Below, piece by piece: positions 214-47,319 of a DNA stretch of 64,000 nt. Both the position numbers and the translations under genes were made by a program. Origin of the DNA: Escherichia coli phage Wa28. The stretch is from sequence record LC788710.1. The stretch is one strand, 5' to 3'. Below the pieces are notes generated by a model. That model did not search any database. It was not told the DNA's origin and was given only the letters and a program-made list of their open reading frames with translations. Numbering within the stretch: position 1 is the first letter of the stretch; each line of letters begins with the position of its first letter.

Positions 214-2829
214 TTACGGTAGTTCTGTAATTGTTGGAGCATTTCCGTTAAGCATTGATTTTACAAGGTTTTTCAGTTCATATAACTCATTGCGTAATAC
301 GTTAATTTCCTCCTGTTGATTATCAATCTTTGCTTTTTGCTCTTTGAATGCGTTAACAAGAAGTGCGACAACACCATTATAGTTAATGCCTTTGATTGCC
401 TCGCCTTTTGGGTCTAGCTGACCATCGTTATTCAAAGAATGAACCGCTTCCGGCAAAACCCTTTCAACATCTTGTGCGATCAATCCAGCCTCAATACTAT
501 AAACGCTGTTTTCATCTTCAATTAGATTGTTGCGCTTGTAGTAAGTATAACCAGTTAGATAATCAATTTTGTCGGATGCCGTTTCGATCTCTTTTAGATG
601 TGTTTTTAATCTAATGTCAGACCTGCTAACCCAATTTGATGCGCTACCATTTCCAGCACTATCAAAAATAAATTCAGCGCCCTTAACATAAAGATGTGTT
701 TCAGCGCCGCCAGAAGTCCACGGAACAACATCCATGCCAGCTACCCAAACTTTCCCCCAATAAACAGATTTAAATATGGCAACCGCAGAATCAAATCCAG
801 TGTGCTCAACAAGCAATCCAGACGCACGACTACGCCAGTCGGCAAATGAACCACCCTCAACTTGACCAGCAATAAGAGCGTTTGGATCACCGCGCCTAAC
901 TCCATTTACATACATACCCCTTGCGTTATCATCAACATAAGATGATATGACCCTGTAAGTGTTTATTCCTAATGGAGTCCATGCAAATATTCTCGCTGAA
1001 TCAGCAAACGCGCTTATGTGACCATCACGATCCCATTTAAGACCTGAATCATGATCCCCAATTGCTATAGAGTAATCACCAAGAGCCGATTGAGCATCCG
1101 GACTTAATAACATCAATTGCCTATCAGATCTTGCTATCCTGTACCATCCACCCCAAGAGCCAGCACTGCAAATGATACCCCATTTATTACCGTTCATTGC
1201 GGTTGCAACAATATTTCCATACTCAACATGACCGTTTGCATTTTTACCGTGAACATGCAATTCATACATCCACCAACCAGAGGCTTCAGGTGGTTGATAT
1301 GTAACAAGTTCTCCGCTTGAGTAATAACCGCTTTCTGCGTATGTTGACATAAACCCAAGAATGTTTGAATTATTAGGAATAATAATTGCTTGACCACCAA
1401 CAGGAGTATTTAAGTTCTTTCTTGCTCCAACTTCAGTATTAGATCCAGTGCCGCCAGCATCAATTGAAAGAGGAATCCATCTTCCAGTTTCATCAGTCCA
1501 AACACCCCACGCCGCATCAGGTCTAATTGTGATTCGATAAGGTGAGTTACTCCCTGGTGCATACATCATAGTTTCTGTTTCTGTTTGCTTTAAACGATCA
1601 ATGCCAAAGTTTATTTTTGCGCCCTCAACGTTTTCAGCACCAGTACCGCCAGCACCAATAGAAAGCGCAGATGTGCTGTTATTGTCATTACGCGCAACGC
1701 GCCATTCCCCATTGTTAGCGATCCGTAATTCATAAGTCCATGCAGGATTACGAAAAGAATTATAAGCGCCAGCATATTGATCTTTTACAGAATTAACAGC
1801 CTCAACTTTTAGCGCCTCCCTTGCAAGGTCTTTGTTTGCAAGATCATTAAGGTTCTGATCCTTCTTTAACGACGCTTGCATAACCTGTTCTGCTGATGCA
1901 GCCGCTGTCTCCGCTCTATCTGCTGCACTGGTGGCATTAGTAGCTTTCTCTCCTGCTATTGTAGCGCTACCAGCGGCCTCCAGGGCCTTGTCTGTTGCTG
2001 TCGTTGCAGCAGTAGTGGCGGTATTTTTAAATACCTCTGCTTCGTCTCTGTAGCCTTTGGTTGTGGTCATCGCTTGCGTAGCTGTATTCGCACTACCTGA
2101 TGCACTTTGCTGAGCTAGCTTAGCAGCGTCTTCACTAGCTTTTGAGTTAATTTCACTAGTCTTTGTATTAGTTTCTGAGTTTTTTGCTGCTAATGCTGAT
2201 GTGGAGGCTTGTGCAGCGAATGCTTCTGCTTCATCCCTGAATCCTTTGGAGTCAGAAGCAGAGGCAGCGGAATCAGCAGCATTAGTCTCACTAGTTTTTG
2301 CTGCTGCTGCATATGCTGCTGCATTAGTCTCACTAGTTTTTGCATTAGTCTCACTAGTTTTTGCATTAATCTCACTAGTTTTTGCTGCAGCTGATGATTC
2401 TATAGCAGTAGTTTCACTAATTTTTGCTGCAGCTGATGATTCTGCAGCTTTAGTAGCGGATGCAGCAGATTGAGAAGCAGAAATAGCAGACTGAGAAGCA
2501 GAAGCTTCAGAAGCTTCAGCAGAAATAGCAGATTCATTCTCAGAATTCTTAGCATTAAGTTCTGAAGTCTTAGCAGCTATCTCGGAGTCTTTTGCAGTAG
2601 TAGCGTATTCTCCCGCCTCTGTAGCAGAACCAGCAGCAGCAATAGCCTGATTGGTAGACTCAGTAGCAGAAGCAGCAGAGGCCTCAACAGCCCCTGTTAG
2701 TTCACTAGCAGTAATAGAACTAATAGAAGTACCTAAAACTACCGTATACTTAGGGTATTTACTAGCAGTAGTTGTAGTGTCATCTATGTTCAGAATCTGC
2801 TGTACAATAATTTTAGTTTTAAGTGCCAT
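214..2829 (-). CDS. ltf: L-shaped tail fiber protein (pb1-like) with Ala/Ser/Thr-rich repeat shaft and C-terminal intramolecular chaperone (S74-type autoprocessing) domain
   Basis: 871 aa ORF; repeated AKTSETN-like units; C-terminal SDIRLK motif followed by coiled-coil typical of self-cleaving fiber chaperone domains; position at end of tail module. Confidence 0.75.
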   Translation of the reverse strand: MALKTKIIVQQILNIDDTTTTASKYPKYTVVLGTSISSITASELTGAVEASAASATESTNQAIAAAGSATEAGEYATTAKDSEIAAKTSELNAKNSENESAISAEASEASASQSAISASQSAASATKAAESSAAAKISETTAIESSAAAKTSEINAKTSETNAKTSETNAAAYAAAAKTSETNAADSAASASDSKGFRDEAEAFAAQASTSALAAKNSETNTKTSEINSKASEDAAKLAQQSASGSANTATQAMTTTKGYRDEAEVFKNTATTAATTATDKALEAAGSATIAGEKATNATSAADRAETAAASAEQVMQASLKKDQNLNDLANKDLAREALKVEAVNSVKDQYAGAYNSFRNPAWTYELRIANNGEWRVARNDNNSTSALSIGAGGTGAENVEGAKINFGIDRLKQTETETMMYAPGSNSPYRITIRPDAAWGVWTDETGRWIPLSIDAGGTGSNTEVGARKNLNTPVGGQAIIIPNNSNILGFMSTYAESGYYSSGELVTYQPPEASGWWMYELHVHGKNANGHVEYGNIVATAMNGNKWGIICSAGSWGGWYRIARSDRQLMLLSPDAQSALGDYSIAIGDHDSGLKWDRDGHISAFADSARIFAWTPLGINTYRVISSYVDDNARGMYVNGVRRGDPNALIAGQVEGGSFADWRSRASGLLVEHTGFDSAVAIFKSVYWGKVWVAGMDVVPWTSGGAETHLYVKGAEFIFDSAGNGSASNWVSRSDIRLKTHLKEIETASDKIDYLTGYTYYKRNNLIEDENSVYSIEAGLIAQDVERVLPEAVHSLNNDGQLDPKGEAIKGINYNGVVALLVNAFKEQKAKIDNQQEEINVLRNELYELKNLVKSMLNGNAPTITELP
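2270..2440. repeat. tandem ~21-bp DNA repeats (gcattagtctcactagttttt x4 and gctgcagctgatgattct x2) inside tail fiber gene
   Basis: direct reading; units are in frame and encode the repeated ETNAKTS-type peptide. Confidence 0.8.
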
Positions 2830-5314: not shown

Positions 5315-8164
5315 TTAAATAGATGCCCAATCCACAGATTGCTCGCCATTATCACCTTCTGCTCTTATACGGAAGCGTAACTTCCTATTAATACCCAGAG
5401 CATCCTCATTATGAAGAGCATAGTCTGCCTTATTGTATATCAGTAGATAATCGTAGACATACTGATCTTCAATTCGTACACTTCTTAATAAACGATCTAG
5501 GTTATCGTAGATTTCGAGAGTGTAGAAGATTCCATCAATGATATCTTCTTCTGGAATTCTATCCCAGGCCAATTTAACGTCTGGTCCTACAAACTCCGAA
5601 GCATCTCCTGAAGCTGTATTAGTAACCCTGAAGTTACTAACGACGCTTAAGTTTTTAGCAGAGTTAAGTTCTACCGATAGTGTTACAGGAGAACTTCGTC
5701 TACCATTAATATCTACAGCTCTAATCTCAAAGACTGCTAAACCAGCAGGTTCTCCAATAATTTCTTGGATCATTCGTAGATTTGGATTAGTTTCTAGTTG
5801 CTGTACTATATAAGGATCAGCATGCCCAGAGTGAACGATGGAGTAATAAACAACGTTATTAGTTAAGCTAGGAAGCCAAGATAGCTCACCATTCTTACCA
5901 ATAGATCCTACTTGTCCACCCGGTGTTGGTGTATACATAAAGTCTCTAGGAGGCAGTACGTTATTACTAACATCAGGGATATCGTTACCACTATTATCAA
6001 CCTGCTCGGAGTTAATGAATACATCCTCACCGTACTCTTGCAGTGTAATATTAATCTTACCTTCTCTAGAGTTTTCAACTTCATCAACTAGGAAGTATTT
6101 CTTGTCCCAACCATAACGACCGTATGTAAAAGCAATCGGATCGTTAGGCTCAATGCCTATGAAATGATATGGTAATGAGAATGTGAGAGTTCGTGAGTAA
6201 CGAGACTTTTTCAGTTCTCTATCTGCAAAGCTACGCGCAGTATAGTAGTTAGTGATGTTTGCAAAAGAAAGCTGAAGTTTTTTATCTAACCCTTTATCTT
6301 GCTCCTTAAATATAGAGTTAAAGAATGTAATGGAGTTAGTTTTCCAGCTTAATGCGGGATCTAATATAGAGGCCTGTACTGAGTTAAACTTATTTCTACC
6401 AGTAGTATCTGATAGCTCCAGATCACCATAGGTATCTAAGAAGTCAATCTCCAGTGGAGTATTCGAGAACTTCTCAACAGTTATTCTATACTGACCAGAT
6501 AAGTTGTTGATAGCACCTCCATAAGACTCTATTAATCCCTGCACGTTTTTAAATACTGACTCAGAGGTATCGAGAATAGTATTCATTTGAACTATTTGTC
6601 TATTCTCTCCTACAGCATCAGTCCATCCAACATATCTCCAGTAGGGTTGCCAAGAAACCTGATAGGATTCATCAATGATATCCAGGATAGCTGCTTCTTG
6701 AATAAGTTGCTGGAGAGGGAACTGATCAATAGTAATATTAGCACCGTAGCGGTCAGAGGTTAGGTAGTCCAGAGTTTGCCAGATACCATTTAAGCTAGTC
6801 TTATCAGCAGTTACTCTACCATCTGAATGATAGATCTTAATCTTCTTACCTTGAACTTCAGCGCTAACTTCTGGAATTTCTGTTCTGTTTTCATTAATAG
6901 TAAAGCGAACAATAGCATAAGCAGTATCTAACAGTTTATAACGAGAGTCCCAGTATTCCGGTCCATTCTCATTCATGTTCTGTAGATAGAAACCTTTCTC
7001 TTTTGCAATGTTAACTAGAACATCAGCAGCAGATTGATCAGCCTTACCATGATAAGTCCAGATACGGATATCGCCATTACCATCATTATACTTATATTCC
7101 TGTCCATGAACAGAAGGTTCAGAGCTTGGTTGACCAGAAGCAATACGTTTCATGGTATCACCAGCTACTTTCTTAGTACCAAAGCAAGTACGAGACTTAC
7201 TATCATTAGGATCAATACAGATCATTGGTACATCACCAAAGTAAAAATCTAGGAACCCATCAATCTCACCTTCACAGAAAGCGTATACTATATATACGAT
7301 ATTAGGATTATGCAGTTCAGTATCTGCAAATACTGGGATTCCAGGAATTTTCTGAACTCCATATACTACTGGCAGGAATTTAGCAGCTAAGTTAAAATCA
7401 AGATCTACTTCCTTAGTTACAGTCTCATAATATTTCTTTAGACTATAGCTTCTAGAAAGACCAAATAATTTTTTCTTAGATTGTAACTTATAACGTTCTT
7501 CCTGAACCTGATACTTAGCAAGAATAGAGATACTCTTGTTAGCGTGGAAGAACCCGTAGTCTTCTTGATATTCAGGTCGCTTAGCACCATTAGACGGAAC
7601 TAATTGGCCGGCAACAATCTCAAGCCCTCTATGGTCAGCATCATCTGTGAAACGTCCATTTACTCTATCAAAGTCATAGAATTGGTTTGAACAGTTCCAT
7701 GTAATAACGGATGTACTAACTCCAGAAGTACCAATGTTATCCTTAATACCACCACCAGTAATTTTACCACGGAAGTAAAGTAAAGGACCATTAGTGTCTG
7801 GATCTACAGGAAGAATATTACCTTCTTCATCAATAACCGCTTGATGGATTGAAATAGATCTATCTAGGAAGGATACACCATTTTGGACTAGTTTTAATAC
7901 TTCATCCTCAGCAGTACCTGTGATAGTAAAAGAAAGGCTACCAATGGAAAGTTTTCTATTTTGTTTATGTGTTGTTATAGACTTAACTTTACCGGATGTG
8001 TAAAGAATACCATTATAAATTACATCCCTAAAATAGTCTGTAAGATAAATGTACGCAGAACTTGATCCGGTAGAGCTTGGCAATTCAAGAGTAATAAGGC
8101 ATGCAGTTTTTATTTTATTATTGGTTCTTAAATACTCTCTTGCACTGTCAAGAATTTTCTTCAT
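5315..8164 (-). CDS. baseplate hub protein (pb3-like)
   Basis: 949 aa ORF immediately after distal tail protein; size and position as recalled for T5 pb3. Confidence 0.6.
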   Translation of the reverse strand: MKKILDSAREYLRTNNKIKTACLITLELPSSTGSSSAYIYLTDYFRDVIYNGILYTSGKVKSITTHKQNRKLSIGSLSFTITGTAEDEVLKLVQNGVSFLDRSISIHQAVIDEEGNILPVDPDTNGPLLYFRGKITGGGIKDNIGTSGVSTSVITWNCSNQFYDFDRVNGRFTDDADHRGLEIVAGQLVPSNGAKRPEYQEDYGFFHANKSISILAKYQVQEERYKLQSKKKLFGLSRSYSLKKYYETVTKEVDLDFNLAAKFLPVVYGVQKIPGIPVFADTELHNPNIVYIVYAFCEGEIDGFLDFYFGDVPMICIDPNDSKSRTCFGTKKVAGDTMKRIASGQPSSEPSVHGQEYKYNDGNGDIRIWTYHGKADQSAADVLVNIAKEKGFYLQNMNENGPEYWDSRYKLLDTAYAIVRFTINENRTEIPEVSAEVQGKKIKIYHSDGRVTADKTSLNGIWQTLDYLTSDRYGANITIDQFPLQQLIQEAAILDIIDESYQVSWQPYWRYVGWTDAVGENRQIVQMNTILDTSESVFKNVQGLIESYGGAINNLSGQYRITVEKFSNTPLEIDFLDTYGDLELSDTTGRNKFNSVQASILDPALSWKTNSITFFNSIFKEQDKGLDKKLQLSFANITNYYTARSFADRELKKSRYSRTLTFSLPYHFIGIEPNDPIAFTYGRYGWDKKYFLVDEVENSREGKINITLQEYGEDVFINSEQVDNSGNDIPDVSNNVLPPRDFMYTPTPGGQVGSIGKNGELSWLPSLTNNVVYYSIVHSGHADPYIVQQLETNPNLRMIQEIIGEPAGLAVFEIRAVDINGRRSSPVTLSVELNSAKNLSVVSNFRVTNTASGDASEFVGPDVKLAWDRIPEEDIIDGIFYTLEIYDNLDRLLRSVRIEDQYVYDYLLIYNKADYALHNEDALGINRKLRFRIRAEGDNGEQSVDWASI

Positions 8165-20186: not shown

Positions 20187-21400
20187 TCTTTATCCCCATC
20201 GGCAGTGCCTTGCGGTCTACCACCTTCTTGACCAGATACACCTGTTGCAGAACCAGCAACGTTAGCAGGAATACGAATCTTATTCATCTGCTCATCATCT
20301 AAAGGTTCAAGGTTAAGCTCTTCACGAGCCTCGTTACCAGTCATGATACCGTTATTAACCAAAGAGGTTAAATGTTTAGCCTCAGCTTCTTTATCTGGCG
20401 TCAGTGCAGCTACTTCCTTAGTATTAGGAGTAACCTTGTAGCCAAAGAAGAAAGTAAGAGAACTAGTCAGCTTGTTCAGCATAGGAATGATAGTCATGTA
20501 ATAGAACAATTCGATGTTTGGTCGAATGTTAGCATTATTACCGCCATCAAGTAACACTTGCGGAACACCAAAGGCAAGACAGATGGATTTATTAAATCCT
20601 TCGATATCTTCCTTGAAGTCTAGATCTTTAAAAGAGGATATTTGGGAGTACGGTTTTGCTTTCATACCACCATCTAGAATCAGGACAGTAGACTGACCTG
20701 TACTAGGATTATAATCGAGTTGTAATTCTTCTTGTTTACGCTCACGCAATTTCTTGTTCAGGATTTCATCCGTCTCAAGAATAAGACCAATCACAGTGCC
20801 GTTATCGAGGAACTTCTCTTTAAAGTTAAGCATTTTAGAACGCTTCTCAAGAGAGTCAATAACTGTAGCAACACGAGATTGTCCAGAAATTTGGGAGTTT
20901 GTGCCACACACGTAACTGTTATCCTTTATAAAGATAATCTCATCTACGCGATAGTCTATCTGGTTATTAAATATGAATTTTTTGATAAACTTATTGGCAT
21001 CTGCCTCTACTTGCATTAGTGCAGCAGGGACATGGTAAAGTGCTGTGCCATCCCAATAGATGTATGCACAACCCTCAAAAAGTAGGTCAGTGACTACAAG
21101 TCTACGGAATGTGCTTATATCCATGAATGGATTAGGTCGTACATTTAAGAGAGTGTCTAGAGTCTTTGCCTTGACGCCATTAGCGTACGTGACAATATTA
21201 TATTTATCTCCGACAGTATAAGAACACTCCGCCGCACTATCGATAACCATGTTAGCAGTTCGGTTGAGAATCTCAATCTTACTGTAGGCTTGTCCAGTGG
21301 TAAATGGCTTACGGTTAGTGCGATGACTAACTGGTTCCATGTCTCTTATAATACGTTGACCCGGATTTAGCTTTTCAGTAATCCAGCTTTTTAAACCCAT
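20183..21400 (-). CDS. portal protein
   Basis: 405 aa ORF between terminase/HNH and protease; synteny and size. Confidence 0.7.
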   Translation of the reverse strand: MGLKSWITEKLNPGQRIIRDMEPVSHRTNRKPFTTGQAYSKIEILNRTANMVIDSAAECSYTVGDKYNIVTYANGVKAKTLDTLLNVRPNPFMDISTFRRLVVTDLLFEGCAYIYWDGTALYHVPAALMQVEADANKFIKKFIFNNQIDYRVDEIIFIKDNSYVCGTNSQISGQSRVATVIDSLEKRSKMLNFKEKFLDNGTVIGLILETDEILNKKLRERKQEELQLDYNPSTGQSTVLILDGGMKAKPYSQISSFKDLDFKEDIEGFNKSICLAFGVPQVLLDGGNNANIRPNIELFYYMTIIPMLNKLTSSLTFFFGYKVTPNTKEVAALTPDKEAEAKHLTSLVNNGIMTGNEAREELNLEPLDDEQMNKIRIPANVAGSATGVSGQEGGRPQGTADGDKE

Positions 21401-21924
21401 TATAAGAACCTTGCGAATCCTGATTTAGTTTCAGTCTTGACTTGTGTCTTTTCTTGAGGATTCTGTAGCTTTTCCTTTTGTTTAAGAACCCATGCCTTCT
21501 GCTTATTAGCAGAGAAAAGGGGAGGTTCCTTAGTGTACACCTTATGTAATAGTTGGTGATGGTGGACACAAAGGGTAACAGTGTCATCTACTAGCTCATG
21601 CCTATATCTTTCATAGAATGCCGTCCTATTTGAGAGGACTGTTTCTTCGTCAGTGAAATCCAATTGGAGTTCTTTAGCAAATTTTTTAACTAGTAGAGAC
21701 ACTGTATGGTAATGATGAAGCTCTAATTCTTCACCACAACCACAGATTTCGCAGCGATCGGCTTTTTTATATTGACTTTTTATACCGTCTCGCATGAGTG
21801 ATATAGCATCACGTTTATATTTTACATTTCCTGCCACAGTATTCTCCTCAACTGTATGAATATAGTATACATAATCATGTCGAATTTGTAAAGGGGATTT
21901 TAAAATGCAGGAATGGGATACCAA
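21400..21924 (-). CDS. HNH endonuclease
   Basis: 174 aa; CEICGC...ELHHYH...CVHHHQLLH zinc-binding HNH-type motifs; next to terminase. Confidence 0.65.
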   Translation of the reverse strand: MVSHSCILKSPLQIRHDYVYYIHTVEENTVAGNVKYKRDAISLMRDGIKSQYKKADRCEICGCGEELELHHYHTVSLLVKKFAKELQLDFTDEETVLSNRTAFYERYRHELVDDTVTLCVHHHQLLHKVYTKEPPLFSANKQKAWVLKQKEKLQNPQEKTQVKTETKSGFARFL

Positions 21925-21951: not shown

Positions 21952-23268
21952 TTATTTCCCACGGGAAATTGAGTAAATTCCATAACGCAGTGCGTCACAA
22001 AGGTGAGAGTTCGCATCATGACGTGGTTTTTCACGTGATAATTTCTCTTCGCCCTCCTGGAAGTCCCACTTGTAGTTCGCTAGGGCGTGGATCAATGAGG
22101 TACATGAAGCATCTACGATGATCTTACCTTGCTGGAACAGTGCTTGTAGGCATGCCAGACCATCTAGGACAGATTTCTTAGCAGGAGCAGAAGCGATTTC
22201 ATGTTCATATGCTAAGTCCTGACGGAACTGAGCAGCAGCGGAGTCTACAAATATACGATCAACATTATAACGATCTATGCAGTGTTGGATATAAGCAGCG
22301 TGTTGAGCTGTAGTCTTTTCAGCTTGCTGATATTCTTCCAGTACGTAATAAACATCAGTATCATAGTGATACTTGATAGTAAGAACTGCTGTAGGGTCAC
22401 GATAACCAACGTCGATACCAAGTAATGTTTCGAAAGCCTCATCATCTTTAAAGAAGTGGCGCATACCTTTGAGGTCTTTAACATGTTCGATAGCATTGAA
22501 GGTGTCAAAGATCTGACCTTCGAATACAGAGAAGTCAGCCTCATATTCTTGACGGAAGTAGTTTTTACTAACAGTACGACGCGCTTCTTCGATATCGTTC
22601 AGATCAGCACGTGGGTTATCACGATATGTACCATGAATAGATACCCAGTTAGGTAGAGTTTCGTTAAATCCTTTCTCATAGAACTCTTTAAACCAGTTAC
22701 CACCACGAGGTGTGGAAATAAACAGAGCTTTAGAGTTTGGCTTATCTAGAGTAGGACGTAACTGAATATCGAAAGCTGCACCACCAACGTCGGAAATCGC
22801 TGCTTCGTCAAAAATGATGAAGTCATATGAACGACCAACCGCGGAGTCAGCCTGCGCCGCAGAAGCCAGCTTAAAGAGAGAACCATTCGCTAGTTCAATC
22901 TCTTTATCTTTTGCGTTCTCACGTTCAGTCTGTAATCCATACTTCTTAATAAGACCACGAATCTGTGACCAACCTATGTTAGCCAGTGAGTAGTTAGGTG
23001 CAACTACCAGCACCTTCACATTGGGTTCCAGAAGTTTTAGGAACCCAAGTGTATATGCGATGAATGACTTACCTACACGACGTGATACACATGCAGTCAC
23101 GAAGCGGTGTCTTGGGTCTTCCAGCGCATTAATGATTGCAATCTGAGGGGCATTAGGTGTAATTCCCTCTTGAGCTAGAATGCTAGAGACTGGCAGACGG
23201 AAGAATCGTTTGTCAATACCAAAGTCAATAACATCTGTGGTGTTAATATAGTCTCTAGAGACTTTCAT
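21952..23268 (-). CDS. terminase large subunit
   Basis: 438 aa; Walker A-like VSRRVGKS, Walker B IIFDEAA, C-terminal nuclease-like acidic motifs. Confidence 0.8.
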   Translation of the reverse strand: MKVSRDYINTTDVIDFGIDKRFFRLPVSSILAQEGITPNAPQIAIINALEDPRHRFVTACVSRRVGKSFIAYTLGFLKLLEPNVKVLVVAPNYSLANIGWSQIRGLIKKYGLQTERENAKDKEIELANGSLFKLASAAQADSAVGRSYDFIIFDEAAISDVGGAAFDIQLRPTLDKPNSKALFISTPRGGNWFKEFYEKGFNETLPNWVSIHGTYRDNPRADLNDIEEARRTVSKNYFRQEYEADFSVFEGQIFDTFNAIEHVKDLKGMRHFFKDDEAFETLLGIDVGYRDPTAVLTIKYHYDTDVYYVLEEYQQAEKTTAQHAAYIQHCIDRYNVDRIFVDSAAAQFRQDLAYEHEIASAPAKKSVLDGLACLQALFQQGKIIVDASCTSLIHALANYKWDFQEGEEKLSREKPRHDANSHLCDALRYGIYSISRGK

Positions 23269-23750
23269 TATCTCTTACCTCCTCCTGCTAGAGCGGTAAT
23301 AAGATTCATATAGTTTTCGTCACCACTTCCAGCAATAATATTATTCTGAATATTAGTCTGGTTAGCCGGAGTACGGGCTGCTGCCTTCACTTTCTCCAGT
23401 TCTACCATCATTTTCATTTCTTCCATCTTCATCTTGTGCGCCTTCCAGAGAATATCCATGATATCCTGGTCAGAACCCATGCCAGTTTCTTCGAGTTCTT
23501 CCAACTTGCGCTTGATAACTTCATCAAGAACTCCGAATAAGCGGTCACGATTACGGAAGCCGCTTTCCATAAAGATATCGTTAAGATAGTTTTTAACTTC
23601 CCCACGATTCATTATATCACGGAATGCAATCTCGGACATTCCAAGACTACGAGCGGCGGCAGGAACATCACTACCGCACTGTAAATAGGCTTCAATAACA
23701 TCCATGCCTTCGGGAGACATGAGATCGGGAACTAATACATCATTTGCCAT
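23268..23750 (-). CDS. putative DNA-binding protein / small terminase candidate
   Basis: 160 aa; N-terminal HTH-like segment; adjacent to large terminase. Confidence 0.4.
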
Positions 23751-23760
23751 ATATCCTCCT

Positions 23761-25542
23761 TTAGGTTAGGCGTTGAACTGTTACACGTAGTCTTGGCAAG
23801 AAAACAGCTGCCGCTTCTGCAGCGTGAATGATAACACCCAACTCAACGTTGCCATTACCAAGGTTTTTAATAGTATAAATATATCCGTTCCTACGGAAAG
23901 CAAACTCATCAGGCCTACTAGCCCAAGTTTGTGTATAACTATAGGAAGTTGTACTGTGATAAGGTACTAGATATCCAGGTGGCAGAGTAAGAATCTGGTG
24001 GAATACACCATCACCAGCTGTATAACTTTGTTGACGTCTACCCTGTACCTGCCAAGCGCTACCGCCGTAAGTACGTACAGGCATTCCAGCAGTATTAAGA
24101 TTACCCATAATAACTTCAGTAGTTAATATAACAGTAGAGTGAGCATTTGGTAATCCCAACCAAACTGTGGCCAAAGGTGTGTAGAAGTCACCAGCACCAG
24201 GGTAGGATGGAGTTATATCGTCCCCTACATAAGTACTTGCAACGTTGCCTGGGAATAACCTGAGGGGTACAGTACTAGGACTCCACACAGGTCCATGTTC
24301 ATTACCAATGGAGTTGGTATTAGTATCTACATACCATTGTTTACCTACACCAAATTTATATAAGCTAATTTGAGAAGCTGCACCACCATAGTTAACAGGA
24401 GACCACAACCCGCCATTACTAGAGCCGATAAATTCACATCGTGCAGTATTATCACCAAAAACTCCGGTATACGCAGCGTTATTACCAACATACTCCATAT
24501 CAGGGCGATAGCCTAAGTTTCCGAAAGCATTCTGGTTAATAAATTTATAGCCTGTATTTGGTAGGCTAACACCTTTAATAGTAAAATTAGACGGAGATAT
24601 TAGGATATCTGAACCGGTAAATGGATTACCAGAAACTCCCATACTACCATTAGAATAGCGCAGATTTAGCACATACCAAATAACCTTAGTTGGCGTAACG
24701 TTATACCAGTCCTGTACATATACCTTTCTAGCAGACTGAGCAGCCATATTAGAAGTAGAACCTCTACAAACATATATTTTTTCTGGGTATGCAGGAGATT
24801 GGTAAAGAACGTTTACGTTATCTGGTAGTACGCCTTTTTTACCTGCGAAGCCACGAATATTAGAACTACAAACATAAAACCAATCATGGCCTCTACCAGC
24901 AGAACCAATAGGCGCCTGCCAGTTAGGTTCCCAATAATCTGCGTTACCACCATCTAAAGGAACAGTAGAGACACCAGTTGGAAAACCCATAAGACTCCAG
25001 GCTCTGGCAATGGCTTCACCAGCAGAAACACCACCAGGTCTAAAGATCTGGAAACCAGAGGACTGTAGTAAACTGCCTCCAGAACCTTGCCTAGCAATAG
25101 ATTCCTCATGACCAAGACCACCATTATAGATATAAGTACCATGAGCTAAACTATCACCGATCGCAAAAGCAGATGTTACAGATAATTCAGCACCAGCACG
25201 TGGTGGGTCTTCAAAGAATGATAAGAACTGGCCAACCTGAGATTGAGTACCATTCAGAAATCCACGATGAGTACCGTTTATCTCAATAGCAGTTAATATA
25301 ACTCTACCCGGATCATTGGATTTAATATTTATAATATCCCAAGGCATCTGAGTAACAAAGTATCCATTACCTGCATTACCTAGGGCTGCTTCATAAGTCC
25401 CATCAACTAGGACAAATGGCATATCTGAGTGGAAGATACTATTAGTATTTGGAGAGTAGTGCTGATTTATATCACCACCATTAGCAGCGTTTAGAGATAA
25501 TACAGTTTTACCATCACTAAATTTTCCTGCGAAAAAACTCAT
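23761..25542 (-). CDS. receptor-binding protein (pb5/Oad-like)
   Basis: 593 aa Gly/Asn/Ser-rich ORF located between terminase and a divergent llp-like lipoprotein gene. Confidence 0.55.
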
Positions 25543-25625
25543 ACAATCTCCTTCTTTAAAAATGTATTTGCTTAGATCCCTCTATTTTGCTATAATATAT
25601 TTATAAATTAAACAGAGGAACGATT

Positions 25626-25892
25626 ATGAAAAAGTTACTAGCCATCGTAGTTGCAGCAGTAGTGTTGACGGGTTGTGTGCCAGCTCCCGAGCCATTTTGT
25701 AAGGCATATGTGAAGTCTTATGGTCATGTTGGTGAAGAACACTACGCTTTAGATATTCGAGAAGCACGTACTGTGGGCTACCGATTCCCTAAAACTCAGT
25801 TACGCACTAAGTTTGGGTGGTGGGATTTGTCACAGTTTGATCTCAAATATGGTGATTGCAAATTTAAACTAGAACAATCTGGTCACTTGTAA
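25626..25892 (+). CDS. llp: Llp-like lytic-conversion lipoprotein (receptor-blocking superinfection exclusion)
   Basis: 88 aa; signal peptide with lipobox LTGC; divergent and adjacent to the RBP gene. Confidence 0.6.
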   Translation: MKKLLAIVVAAVVLTGCVPAPEPFCKAYVKSYGHVGEEHYALDIREARTVGYRFPKTQLRTKFGWWDLSQFDLKYGDCKFKLEQSGHL

Positions 25893-26170: not shown

Positions 26171-26356
26171 GTGCAATTGCTAGGGTATTCCAAATACCAA
26201 GACTATAGGAGAAGCAAAGAGATGTCAGACGACAACAGAAGAAAGAACAGACGCGGGGAAGTGTACGAAAGTTGGATAAATAGTTTCGGATTCGGGACTG
26301 TGTTATTCTTTATCTTTGTACTCTTTTGGTTAGCAGCTATGGCGGGGTGGTTATAA
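26171..26356 (+). CDS. small membrane protein
   Basis: 61 aa; C-terminal hydrophobic helix VLFFIFVLFWLAAMAGWL. Confidence 0.3.
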   Translation: MQLLGYSKYQDYRRSKEMSDDNRRKNRRGEVYESWINSFGFGTVLFFIFVLFWLAAMAGWL

Positions 26357-26459
26357 TGGAAGTAGTAATTATTACTTTACTAGTTGTGGTAATTATAGGG
26401 CAGTGTATTTTAGATAACCACTTAGCTCGTATTGAACGTAAGCTGCGGGGAGATAAATA

Positions 26460-26654
26460 ATGGATTGGTTAGGACTTATTACACTTGTAGTATGGATTGT
26501 CTGGATTGTTGGATACATGACGTCACATCGTAATCGTATACAGAAGCTAGAGGATAAAGTCACCCAACTAAACATTAATATGGATAAGTTACTGGACTCC
26601 CAACGTAATGATCGGGCGCGTATTCACCAACTTGAGAGGGAATTAGATGTTTAG
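26460..26654 (+). CDS. small membrane protein
   Basis: 64 aa; N-terminal TM helix then charged tail. Confidence 0.3.
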   Translation: MDWLGLITLVVWIVWIVGYMTSHRNRIQKLEDKVTQLNINMDKLLDSQRNDRARIHQLERELDV

Positions 26655-26892
26655 CTTTGTAGCTATCTTCATTATCGGAGTGCTTGCGGGGATCTTCGGA
26701 ACACTCGGGGCGATTAACAAGCATCGTGAATACGTTGCGGGAATATCGCGGGAGCTTTCGGAAAGGGAGCGGAGGTTTGCGGAGAAACGTGCGGAGTTTG
26801 AGCGGGAGTGGTCGGATGGATCTCGGGCGTCGCGGAGGAGATTTCGTATGTCAGAATCAGGAGACAAGCCGGTAGACCGGTGTTCCTCCTAA
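26647..26892 (+). CDS. small membrane-anchored Arg/Glu-rich protein (GC-rich ORF)
   Basis: 81 aa; N-terminal TM helix; DNA has GCGGAG hexamer repeats and locally elevated GC. Confidence 0.35.
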   Translation: MFSFVAIFIIGVLAGIFGTLGAINKHREYVAGISRELSERERRFAEKRAEFEREWSDGSRASRRRFRMSESGDKPVDRCSS

Positions 26893-27055: not shown

Positions 27056-27790
27056 TTAGGCGACTTTTAATTTATCAATGAATTGTTGCGGGCTGCAACT
27101 ATATTCTGCGCGTTCTTCCTCGGTCATACCTTCCCAACACATTTTTAAACGGTCGGCTAGGAATTGATAATCATTATCATCATCTAATGATTCATCAATA
27201 AAGGTTTCACCGATCAATGTTACGCCGATTGATAGGATATCATTAACGGCTTGAGCGTCCAGCGTTTTAAATCCAGCACTTGCCGCCGCCGATAATACGC
27301 CTTTATGATCATCAATCATCGTAAAATCAGCGTTCGGATATAACTGTTTAAACAGTTCAAAGTAATAGCTTTTGTATACAGCGTCTTTACTATGATATAT
27401 TTCGCTAACCTTATCCGCTTCAAAGTATTTGTGTAATGTATCGCGAGAGAATACGCGGATATTGCTATTTCCGCGCCCTCGCAAGCCTTGTTTACGCAAA
27501 TAAAAGTAATCGCTTTTAGACATAAGGCGCGCGGTACAAATAATATTTAAAGTATTTGCATCATTCATACATTGGCGCATATATTCAACCAATGGCAATA
27601 AAGAATCCTGCATAATTAAATCATGTTTACAGGCTTCGCGTGAATACTTATTTAAATTTAAATTCCCGTTATCATCAAAGCAAGGCGCTACACGGTGGAA
27701 AGAATTAATGATAGTTCCGTCTAAGTCCCAAATCATAACGCGGGAAATATGCGGGAAAGCGCGGGCAATATTCAAGGTTACTTGATTCAT
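27056..27790 (-). CDS. dmp: 5-prime deoxyribonucleotidase (Dmp-like, HAD superfamily)
   Basis: 244 aa; HAD motif I DLDGT near N-terminus; first gene of a pre-early-like block. Confidence 0.65.
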   Translation of the reverse strand: MNQVTLNIARAFPHISRVMIWDLDGTIINSFHRVAPCFDDNGNLNLNKYSREACKHDLIMQDSLLPLVEYMRQCMNDANTLNIICTARLMSKSDYFYLRKQGLRGRGNSNIRVFSRDTLHKYFEADKVSEIYHSKDAVYKSYYFELFKQLYPNADFTMIDDHKGVLSAAASAGFKTLDAQAVNDILSIGVTLIGETFIDESLDDDNDYQFLADRLKMCWEGMTEEERAEYSCSPQQFIDKLKVA

Positions 27791-27877
27791 TTGTTACATT
27801 CTCCATTTAAGGGATTTAGGTTAATTCAATCTTGCCAGCTAATTATATTGGATTAGCTGGCAATGTTCAATTAACTA

Positions 27878-28270
27878 TTAATTAGTGAGGCCATACGCTA
27901 GCGCGTCACCAATAAAGCTAATATCCTCACCATGTACGCTAGAACGAATCCCCGCGCAAGTGTAAACCATCGCGCTAGCTTCTGGATTGCAGACCGGACA
28001 CGGCTTAACAACTGCAAACGCTAGACCGGATTTAAGCGCATCAATAATAATTGTTTGCACTGTCAAAGTATCAGCGTAAACGCCTTTTGCTTTCGTATGG
28101 CTTGCCACTTTGCCGGTATCATAAGCAAAGGTAGTAACCTGCAAAGCGTCGTTATAATTCAGCAAATCAAAATTAACTTGCCCCGCCTCGACGTGATAAC
28201 GTTCACCATTAGAATAAACTAGAACGATGGAAGAAGTAGCACGATCAAAAGGAATGTTTTGGTTTTTCAT
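27878..28270 (-). CDS. hypothetical protein
   Basis: 130 aa ORF. Confidence 0.4.
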   Translation of the reverse strand: MKNQNIPFDRATSSIVLVYSNGERYHVEAGQVNFDLLNYNDALQVTTFAYDTGKVASHTKAKGVYADTLTVQTIIIDALKSGLAFAVVKPCPVCNPEASAMVYTCAGIRSSVHGEDISFIGDALAYGLTN

Positions 28271-28302
28271 GTTTATGACTCCAGATTATTTAATTACGGG
28301 AT

Positions 28303-28581
28303 TTATTGAAAAAATACATTTAAAGATAAATCAGTTTTACGAAAATATGTTTCGTCGCCGTCTTTCCTTTCTTGATTAAGGTAATCGCCTGTCATTACCT
28401 GAATATGATCTTTTTCGAAAAAGATCATATTTTCGCCAATATTACTATCCCATACGGCATACATTCCCGCGTACATTCCACGGGTAACTAAATAAACGCA
28501 ACTATCAAAAGACATTTCAGACCATGCAATATCTTCTAAACAATTGCTATCAGGGATAGATATATTAATTTTACTAGCCAT
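28303..28581 (-). CDS. hypothetical protein
   Basis: 92 aa ORF. Confidence 0.4.
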   Translation of the reverse strand: MASKINISIPDSNCLEDIAWSEMSFDSCVYLVTRGMYAGMYAVWDSNIGENMIFFEKDHIQVMTGDYLNQERKDGDETYFRKTDLSLNVFFQ

Positions 28582-28633
28582 TTAATAAACCTTTTATTAA
28601 TGGCGGTATATTTCAACCGCCGATTAAATTTAA

Positions 28634-30298
28634 TTATGCAAAGAATTTACCGTTTTTGAAATCAATCAAAGTACGTTGCCCGTTTGCATAGGTAATTAAA
28701 TGCGTTTGCGTCCAGCTTGACGCGCCCACGTTGTAGCCCATATCAAGGGAACCAGCAACGCCAGCGGTATAAACGCCGCCGTAAATGCTAGCCGTGTGAG
28801 TGTGACCAGTGTTAAGGCGTCCCAACTTTTTAAACTGCTTAGGATTGCCCCGACTGCCGTTAATGCCATTGTGACCATGTACGCCGCATTCAATGCCAGC
28901 GATTTTAAAGGACTGGTCAGTAGTCAAAAAAATGGCGTTAAATTCGCATCCTGCAACGTTTCTAAGCGCATAATCTAACACGTTAAAGGTATCATCCTTT
29001 TCAGCAATAGCGGCGTAAATCGCAGCGTTTAGACGGTGATACAGTTCCGCGTTTGCGGGATCATCTTTAATGTTTGCGTTACGATCATCTAACCAGCGGG
29101 ATAATGCTAAATCATGGTTAGATTCCACAATGATTGTTTGACTAAAATCACGTTCCATAGATTCTAATACGCGTCCAGTATCGATAAGATCATCAATAAC
29201 TTTATCACGTCCGGCGGCGTATTGTTTCGCAAGGAATACACCACTAGCGCGGTTATGATGGTTACGCGATGTAAAATCATGCACGTCATGAATAAATTGA
29301 TATTTCGGTTTAAGAATATCAAGCAAGCTGTTTTCACTAGCCCATGAAGCGACGGCGCAATCATCATCTAATTTTTCGGCGTGAATATCGCCATATTGCA
29401 AGCCTAGAACATGATCGGACGTTTCAAAACATCCGGTAGGCATAGCGCAAACATTCAAATCATAGAACATTCCGCTTTCATCCATTGTTTCAATCTGGCG
29501 AGCATAAAATTCGCCGTCGTCGTCGAACTCTACCAGCAAAGCGCCATAATTATGTAAAGCCTCAGCTTTTTGACCTGCTTTCTGCTGAATGTAGTTTTTA
29601 AGCGTAGCCGTTCCGGTTGAATACATACGGCACACTACTTCACCTTTTAACGCTGGCACACTTTCAGCGGTAATTTTAGCGTGACCAATTGCCAGACCTT
29701 CAATATTTAAAGCCGTGGCGGTTTCTGCGAATCCTGAAAGCGGGTAATCTGCCGTTGGTAAAACGTTAATTTCAGCCATGAAAGCAAAGCGGCGGTTATT
29801 TAAAAATACGTTTTTATCACAAACATATTTATCAAATGCGGGATCGTATTTAATACCGTTTGCCCCTTCCCCGTTCTGAAATCCGTTTTTGTTGTAAATG
29901 AATTTGCTAACAAGTAATTCAGCGCCGCAATATTCAGCGAATTTTTCCAGACTTGCTAAAAAGTTTTTATGCGGGAAAGTATTATTTTGAATCGACGTTA
30001 GAATAAAACGGCGACCGGACTTAACTTCCCATTGCTCAACGGTGCTAGAAACAATTCCCGCCGCCTCTGGGCGATCATCGTTTTTAATCGCCTTTTCGGC
30101 TTTTGCCGCTTTCGGTTTCGCTGGTTTATTTGCTTCCAGCCAGTCACAAATTGCGGTCGAATGTTTCGGCGTACCATAAACAGCTTTTGAAATATCGTCG
30201 CAAACTTCCAATTTAGTAGCGCGTAAACGCTTACCGTAGAAGTTAAAATCTGCGGCCATTTTCAAAATTTGAGCTTGTTTTTCTGCGGAAATATTCAT
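28634..30298 (-). CDS. A1: A1-like pre-early protein with metallophosphoesterase motifs
   Basis: 554 aa; GDIH and GHTH metallophosphatase-like motifs; synteny with dmp and A2-like gene. Confidence 0.6.
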   Translation of the reverse strand: MNISAEKQAQILKMAADFNFYGKRLRATKLEVCDDISKAVYGTPKHSTAICDWLEANKPAKPKAAKAEKAIKNDDRPEAAGIVSSTVEQWEVKSGRRFILTSIQNNTFPHKNFLASLEKFAEYCGAELLVSKFIYNKNGFQNGEGANGIKYDPAFDKYVCDKNVFLNNRRFAFMAEINVLPTADYPLSGFAETATALNIEGLAIGHAKITAESVPALKGEVVCRMYSTGTATLKNYIQQKAGQKAEALHNYGALLVEFDDDGEFYARQIETMDESGMFYDLNVCAMPTGCFETSDHVLGLQYGDIHAEKLDDDCAVASWASENSLLDILKPKYQFIHDVHDFTSRNHHNRASGVFLAKQYAAGRDKVIDDLIDTGRVLESMERDFSQTIIVESNHDLALSRWLDDRNANIKDDPANAELYHRLNAAIYAAIAEKDDTFNVLDYALRNVAGCEFNAIFLTTDQSFKIAGIECGVHGHNGINGSRGNPKQFKKLGRLNTGHTHTASIYGGVYTAGVAGSLDMGYNVGASSWTQTHLITYANGQRTLIDFKNGKFFA

Positions 30299-46625: not shown

Positions 46626-46916
46626 TTAATCTTCTGGATTATCTTCCAGGAAGTTTTTGATTGCATCGTGCATAGTTTCCTTACGAAGCTGACGACCAAT
46701 CAGAATGTGGTTGGCTTCCACACGACCATTCGGTAGACGATCTGCTAGAACTACTACAGGAACTTGTCTAACACCGAACTTCTGCATAAGTTCTGTATTA
46801 TCAGTCTCTTTATGAACTTCTAGACTGTAGCCCTGTACTACTTTATCGAATACAGGCTCGAAAAGTTTACATGGGTTGCAAGTGGAACCTTTTAATAGAT
46901 ATATTAATTTACTCAT
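46626..46916 (-). CDS. thioredoxin/glutaredoxin-like protein
   Basis: 96 aa; CNPC redox motif near N-terminus. Confidence 0.5.
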   Translation of the reverse strand: MSKLIYLLKGSTCNPCKLFEPVFDKVVQGYSLEVHKETDNTELMQKFGVRQVPVVVLADRLPNGRVEANHILIGRQLRKETMHDAIKNFLEDNPED

Positions 46917-47319
46917 GTTTATTAATGGCCTCCAAAAAGCCTTTCATTACCTTGACAGTTGCAGTGCTAAGATCTAAGGTAGCACCTAAGCACTCGGATA
47001 CAGCAGCTTGATAAGGGGCTTTTAGCCTGCCTTCCGGTACTTGTACTTTCTTATAGGTTTTCTTCTTGACTTTATCCAGCATCGTTTCAAGAACATTGAG
47101 AGGCAACTTCTGACCTTCAATATTCACGCCAAGCTCTTCCATTAGCATGGTATTTAAGTCAATACGAGTAAGTTTCTTGCCCTTGCTAGACATACGAATT
47201 CCCGCCTTTTTCTCAAGTTTTGCACGCTCTGGTGAATCGAGGTCACGTAATGCGATGTTCAATTCATACGGAGCCATATTGTAATGGTTAGCCATCTGAG
47301 TATAGTAACGATCTGACAT
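46909..47319 (-). CDS. hypothetical protein
   Basis: 136 aa; GAGGAG RBS. Confidence 0.4.
   Translation of the reverse strand: MSDRYYTQMANHYNMAPYELNIALRDLDSPERAKLEKKAGIRMSSKGKKLTRIDLNTMLMEELGVNIEGQKLPLNVLETMLDKVKKKTYKKVQVPEGRLKAPYQAAVSECLGATLDLSTATVKVMKGFLEAINKHE

Follow-up and report, generated by a model that had tools for sequence, protein, structure and literature searches.

The gene pair we describe here is the host-recognition module of Escherichia coli phage Wa28, and it has well-described relatives among the T5-like phages: an RBP (receptor-binding protein) and, running away from it, a lipoprotein called Llp. In T5 itself the pair is pb5 (oad) and Llp (PDB codes 8b14, 8a8c, 8a60 and 7qjf), and the receptor is FhuA. 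In BF23 it is Hrs and Llp (DQ097178), and in TrudiRoth (Bas30; MZ501109) it is bas30_0206 together with the superinfection exclusion protein bas30_0205. The Wa28 pair lies in a stretch of 64,000 nucleotides from sequence record LC788710.1, which we call the window. An earlier note, made from the letters of this DNA, had placed an RBP and a divergent receptor-blocking lipoprotein here and supposed that the receptor was not FhuA. Our reading is that the region is the host-recognition module in its BtuB version, carried by a T5-like (Epseptimavirus) phage, and we put the probability of this at roughly 0.88.

A good deal is known about receptor choice in these phages. The RBPs of the Markadamsvirinae fall into three clusters that predict the use of BtuB, FepA or FhuA (PMC8594841). 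TrudiRoth "targets BtuB", a dependence shown genetically, with full complementation of a btuB mutant (PMC8594841). BF23 and DT57C use BtuB as well (PMC4728585; PMC10644984), S114 and S133 are among the experimentally confirmed BtuB binders (PMC12980165), and SPC35 (NC_015269) is described in the literature as BtuB-dependent. A genome-wide screen from 2026 lists 23 BtuB-binding Demerecviridae, with an RBP approximately 30% identical to pb5. As for the lipoproteins, BF23 Llp blocks BtuB according to Mondigler et al. 2006, as that work is cited in PMC4728585 and PMC8624392. Plasmid-borne expression of the DT57C allele, which is one residue away from that of BF23, lowered the plating of BF23 and of DT57C-type phages but left T5 unaffected (PMC4728585).

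The receptor-binding protein and its receptor

In Wa28 the module consists of two divergent open reading frames (ORFs) with an 83-bp spacer between them (25543-25625), and their limits are those given by the earlier note.

23761..25542, minus strand: gene for the RBP of the pb5/Hrs family, assigned to the BtuB-specific clade, 593 residues, ATG start (ORF list, PHROG 4815, pb5 homology)
25626..25892, plus strand: llp, gene for a BF23-type receptor-blocking (superinfection exclusion) lipoprotein by homology, 88-residue precursor (ORF list, homology)

Neither ORF is there by chance, because tblastn matches to the RBP turn up in 534 phage records and matches to the lipoprotein in 397. The 593-residue protein at the RBP position is indeed a member of the pb5/Hrs family, as had been proposed. 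It matches PHROG 4815, "receptor binding tail protein", with E 3.2e-283 (residues 1-593 on profile positions 1-650), and it is homologous to the solved pb5 chains 8b14_B and 8a8c_B with E 1.7e-46, in two stretches covering residues 1-195 and 274-593. Pfam offered no useful match, only a chance one to KOW. The description of the protein as rich in glycine and asparagine was half right: glycine stands at 12.5% against 6.3% in four neighbouring proteins, but asparagine is only slightly enriched, at 7.3% against 6.2%.

What carries the receptor assignment is the comparison with RBPs of known specificity. Pairwise identities, taken from a MAFFT alignment, are 99.7% to TrudiRoth, 83% to SPC35, 76% to BF23 Hrs and 66% to DT57C, whereas T5 pb5 reaches only 31%, and the H8 and S124 proteins 32%. 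The Wa28 protein thus clusters with those of BF23, SPC35 and DT57C, all BtuB users, and apart from H8/S124 and T5. The earlier note had suggested just this alignment against pb5, Hrs and FepA-type RBPs (31%, 76% and 32%, respectively), and it narrows the receptor to BtuB. The RBP of S133 is 97.6% identical, and 100% identity is reached by the proteins of two phages, MET_P1_137_112 of Salmonella and Shin27 of E. coli. Homologues are carried by 534 records of the annotated phage collection, 36 of them at an identity of at least 99%.

TrudiRoth is the comparison that matters most. Its RBP and that of Wa28 share 591 of 593 residues, the sole differences being V399I and T537I. Its two genes have the same divergent arrangement, with the same intergenic sequence between them, whereas the rest of the genome differs. 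Because the TrudiRoth RBP has been characterised genetically, and because the two substitutions are conservative and lie outside the variable region (residues 100-300), BtuB is a safe assignment from sequence for the Wa28 RBP. BF23 has the same divergent two-gene module and the same receptor class, but with a different allele of both genes, and it is a Tequintavirus whereas Wa28 groups with Epseptimavirus; the Wa28 RBP is two residues shorter.

Length had been one of the arguments of the earlier note, which took pb5 to be the longer protein. It is: T5 pb5 has 640 residues, 47 more than the Wa28 RBP, with the gap spread across many small insertions and deletions, the largest deletions corresponding to pb5 residues 246-254, 282-292 and 562-573. 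The companion claim, that shorter RBPs use BtuB or FepA, stands for BtuB (586-595 residues) and falls for FepA, since the RBPs of H8 and S124 have 637 residues. Conservation across the three receptor classes is concentrated at the termini of the protein (MSFFAGK... and ...QRLT). Identity to T5 pb5 is lowest, at 16-26%, over residues 100-300, and the corresponding region of pb5 bears the loops that insert into FhuA, with Gln115 and Phe170 at their tips (PMC9586334). The BtuB-type RBPs themselves diverge most over residues 150-200, where identity to SPC35, BF23 and DT57C is 68, 52 and 38%, respectively.

Could the Wa28 protein nonetheless bind FhuA as pb5 does, with a lipoprotein that blocks FhuA in the manner of T5 Llp or Cor? 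Some database names would have it so. In the record of phage Sepoy, a protein 98.7% identical to the Wa28 RBP goes by the name "FhuA receptor-binding tail protein", the RefSeq name of the lipoprotein is "Cor superinfection exclusion protein", and the lipoprotein matches PHROG 1119, which is named after Cor. Names of this sort are carried over within a family and report no experiment. The earlier note had itself named a strong match to pb5 over the full length as contrary evidence, and there is none: overall identity is 31%, and it drops to 16-26% in the region where pb5 has its FhuA-inserting loops. The nearly identical TrudiRoth RBP needs btuB, not fhuA, and Llp of the DT57C/BF23 type has no effect on T5. 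We regard FhuA binding as highly improbable.

FepA, the receptor of phage H8 and probably of S124, is less probable still. It had been put forward in the earlier note for short RBPs, and the first 50 residues of the Wa28 protein are 76% identical to those of H8. That conserved N terminus is common to all three receptor classes, however, and so does not track receptor choice. Overall identity to H8 and S124 is 32%, FepA-type RBPs are not short, and the gene that neighbours the RBP gene in H8 and S124 does not encode a lipoprotein of the Wa28 Llp family. Identity, length and the genetics of TrudiRoth speak against both specificities, and we reject them.

Several database entries touching this protein family deserve a word of caution. 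The Sepoy name (MK728825) looks like a GenBank annotation error, as does that of an RBP homologue in SE8 (MK972716) labelled "receptor-blocking protein". BtuB-type RBP genes of about 68% identity also appear in short records, namely OR846838 and OR849157 ("Listeria phage LM 4-11-1" and "LM 4-14-1") and others named "Campylobacter phage". These Listeria- and Campylobacter-named records with a T5-like RBP look like contaminant or mislabelled contigs; in the case of Listeria, an RBP that binds BtuB would be out of place in a phage of Gram-positive bacteria.

The lipoprotein and how it might block BtuB

The partner of the RBP is a small lipoprotein. Its N terminus, MKKLLAIVVAAVVLTGC, has a basic start, a hydrophobic core and the lipobox L14-T15-G16-C17, so that a divergent lipoprotein with the lipobox LTGC does adjoin the RBP gene, as the earlier note had read it.

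25665-25676, plus strand: codons of the lipobox LTGC, at the end of the predicted signal peptide (residues 1-16) and including the predicted lipidated Cys17

Pfam LPAM_1 matches residues 1-17 with 18.6 bits, just under the 20-bit cut-off; together with a match to Phage_lipoprotein that is likewise below threshold, this was all that Pfam gave, nothing of use. Whole-protein comparisons are far more telling. All 88 residues of the Wa28 lipoprotein are shared with the "superinfection exclusion protein" of TrudiRoth. The S114, S133 and SuperGirl proteins are 100% identical to it too, as are those annotated "receptor-blocking protein" in many Epseptimavirus genomes. It occurs at an identity of at least 99% in 133 records. 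A second group of 204 records, BF23, SPC35 and DT57C among them, has an allele at 60-80% identity; SPC35, which has the same locus, thus carries the BF23-type allele and not that of Wa28. Between Wa28 and BF23 Llp, 60 of the 88 residues are identical (68%, E 3e-48), and the likeness is uneven, at 93% over the C-terminal 30 residues as against 55% in the N-terminal portion of mature Llp. PHROG 1119 is matched by Wa28 Llp with E 1.2e-23, by T5 Llp with E 1.1e-19 and by BF23 Llp with E 1.8e-26; PHROGs are merged clusters, this one probably with both Llp subtypes, and the shared match is not an independent proof of homology. By its 68% identity to a lipoprotein that blocks BtuB, Wa28 Llp is predicted to be the cognate BtuB blocker, a function we infer from the BF23 and DT57C alleles and one that agrees with what the earlier note had expected of it.

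A handful of points weigh against the overall reading and should be set beside this evidence. The predicted btuB dependence of Wa28 is taken over from the 99.7% identical TrudiRoth RBP; a literature search found no exclusion test of the Wa28 Llp allele; the N-terminal part of mature Llp agrees with the BF23 allele at only 55% of its residues; and there is the FhuA name attached to the Sepoy protein.

How a lipoprotein of this kind might disable its receptor is best appreciated from T5. In the crystal structure of FhuA together with Llp, Llp sits on the periplasmic face of FhuA, bound to a non-native conformation of the plug, and extracellular loops 7 and 8 are folded inward over the pb5 site (PMC9586334). 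The authors propose that the mechanism generalises to other TonB-dependent transporters (PMC9586334). The question is whether Wa28 Llp resembles T5 Llp enough for this to apply. The two differ in length, T5 Llp having 77 residues, and show no significant pairwise similarity past the signal peptide and first cysteine: BLASTP gives E 0.059 over 45 residues, which is not significant, and hhalign of the Wa28 Llp family against T5 Llp gives a 93% probability that refers to columns 1-29 only, the signal peptide and first cysteine, with the mature domain outside the alignment. Only 10 clusters of the Wa28 Llp family, at 64-99% identity, are present in the large protein database, too few for a deep and diverse alignment. 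The cysteines are another matter. C17, C25 and C78 are invariant in the alignment of 11 family members and are placed like C16, C26 and C73 of T5 Llp, the last two of which form the Cys11-Cys58 disulphide of the mature protein that ties its termini together (PMC9586334).

We modelled the structure of Wa28 Llp with AlphaFold2 from the 11-sequence alignment. The model has a mean predicted local distance difference test score (pLDDT) of 82.7, with most blocks of the mature domain above 90, and it is a five-stranded small barrel with a C-terminal helix. Foldseek found no match below E 0.1 for it in the PDB, and a sequence search of the PDB with Llp found none even at E 10. Among viral predicted structures, the best match is the receptor-blocking protein of phiR2-01 (E 2e-10), and phage CEC_Kaz_2018 has a weakly matching "superinfection exclusion protein" (E 6e-3). 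T5 Llp has its cysteines in a similar pattern and may well have a small beta-barrel too. A fold common to Llp of the BF23 and T5 types is thus no more than hinted at, but it is the one mildly new point.

By analogy, the most likely mechanism is one of plug-jamming, in which Llp would bind the periplasmic face and plug of BtuB and cause an allosteric infolding of the extracellular loops; the support for it is suggestive. The blocking of BtuB, the location of Llp and the plug-jamming itself we infer alike. One alternative, which we think unlikely, is the sole rival to be taken seriously: BtuB would still be the receptor of the RBP, yet the Wa28 Llp allele would be no periplasmic plug-jammer and might block BtuB by another route, such as surface exposure with direct occlusion, or have drifted in function or target. 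BF23-type and T5-type Llp have been described as non-homologous (PMC4728585; PMC10644984), neither pairwise nor profile comparison gives a significant result for the mature domains, Foldseek gave no PDB match, and the N-terminal part of the mature protein is 45% different from the tested BF23 allele. A member of the family, Gp145 of phiR2-01, was undetected by proteomics and is untested (PMC8624392). The allele, its promoter and its cysteines are strictly conserved, and this speaks against a loss of function.

One observation on the FepA phages belongs here. At the Llp position, S124 (1567-1905, minus strand) and H8 (~46735-46971) have a gene for an acidic protein of 103-112 residues (MQENEKPFQEPLPLEMNPRAK...). 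The S124 annotation calls it "receptor blocking protein; T5 Llp-like", and the S124/H8 product has neither signal peptide nor lipobox. No lipobox ORF was seen in S124/H8 between this gene and the monophosphatase gene. Either FepA is blocked differently or the annotation is wrong.

Promoter, spacer and neighbouring genes

The short spacer between the two genes is where their expression signals lie, among them a good ribosome-binding site for each.

25568..25596, plus strand: predicted llp promoter, with -35 TTGCTT (25568-25573), a 17-nt spacer and extended -10 TGcTATAAT (25588-25596) (alignment)
25548..25553, minus strand: Shine-Dalgarno AAGGAG, 5 nt before the RBP start codon (plus strand ctcctt; start codon cat at 25540-25542)
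25615..25619, plus strand: Shine-Dalgarno GAGGA, 6 nt before the llp start codon (read from the sequence)

Both promoter hexamers are invariant in an intergenic alignment of six phages (the window, TrudiRoth, BF23, SPC35, DT57C and T5), and they fall on the llp -35 and -10 signals that the BF23 record marks. A promoter of the sigma-70 type is thus predicted to drive llp. A generic promoter scan did not report it, the -35 matching at only 3/6 positions; it returned two unrelated minus-strand sites, no more than shuffled sequences give. A scan found no intrinsic terminator after llp. The conserved promoter fits early transcription of llp by the host polymerase, as described for T5.

Compared with T5 (6351-6429), the spacer is 68% identical at the nucleotide level, as against 48-49% for the flanking genes. 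It would be a conserved regulatory island in an otherwise swapped cassette, and possibly a recombination joint. By analogy, its conservation fits an exchange of modules by recombination, and in DT57C a recombination breakpoint between hrs and llp has been proposed (PMC4728585).

Further afield, the locus looks as one would expect of a T5-like phage.

23268..23750, minus strand: terS, terminase small subunit gene, a marker of locus context (PHROG 3802, E 2e-90)
21952-23268, minus strand: terL, terminase large subunit gene (PHROG)

The RBP gene lies directly upstream of terS and terL on the same strand, with the RBP stop at 23761 and the terS start at 23750, and this is likewise so in T5, SPC35 and DT57C. 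Past the RBP gene, the minus strand carries terS, terL, an HNH-like ORF and portal, in that order. On the other side, llp is followed by four small membrane-protein ORFs and then by the genes for the deoxynucleotide monophosphatase and A1. The overall architecture is common to T5, SPC35, DT57C, BF23 and TrudiRoth. For the 20 kb that surround the locus, E. coli phage Shin27 gives the best whole-region match, with 98.4% identity, and many Salmonella Epseptimavirus phages match at 95-97%. By sequence, then, the window is a T5-like genome that groups with Epseptimavirus.

Three of the neighbours merit description. Between portal and terL is a 174-residue ORF (21400-21924, minus strand) whose motifs, one CxxC and one rich in His (CEICGCGEELELHHYH...CVHHHQLLH), are characteristic of HNH endonucleases. 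Its PHROG matches are solely to groups of unknown function (phrog_3497), and it is probably a homing endonuclease, judging by the motifs; in T5 the insert found here is a different one, T5.153/T5.154. Downstream of llp (26171-26892, plus strand) lie four short ORFs that overlap in part and contain hydrophobic segments. Their homologues are BF23 Orf1-4 and T5.159-162, single-pass membrane proteins of unknown function; here the GC skew is unusually positive (up to +0.29) and the GC content is raised (0.48). Finally, the monophosphatase and A1 genes (27056-30298, minus strand) come directly after the llp region. In T5 these are genes of the terminal repeat, and because they follow the llp region directly, the window would seem to cross the place where the right terminal repeat would join on in the packaged linear genome. 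This suggests that the source assembly is permuted or that the repeat has been collapsed.

A probable path from receptor to exclusion

Put together, the module would work as follows. The RBP gene would be transcribed with the terminase genes as a late gene, and its product, at the tip of the central straight tail fibre, would bind the extracellular face of BtuB, the vitamin B12 transporter of E. coli or Salmonella. Irreversible binding would then trigger opening of the tail and ejection of the DNA, as is established for the family. Llp would be read from its conserved sigma-70 promoter with extended -10, exported, lipidated at Cys17 and sorted to the inner leaflet of the outer membrane. We expect this destination because the residue at +2 is Val and not Asp; in established lipoprotein biology, the residue at +2 governs sorting. 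There, Llp would bind BtuB and make it unusable by the phage's own RBP, and the block would exclude superinfection and spare the progeny from adsorbing to debris.

None of this carries much weight as a discovery. The module is already known, effectively identical copies having been deposited and annotated and the RBP characterised genetically; for T5-like phages, what the module is, which receptor it serves and what its lipoprotein does are textbook matters. To our knowledge, no structure exists of a complex of BtuB with an RBP or with Llp. What is useful is a confident BtuB call from sequence alone, since phage cocktails are built with non-overlapping receptors. Cross-resistance becomes predictable, and btuB mutants would be expected to resist Wa28. 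For the family as a whole, the weak fold link to T5 Llp suggests that the plug-jamming seen with FhuA may extend to BtuB.

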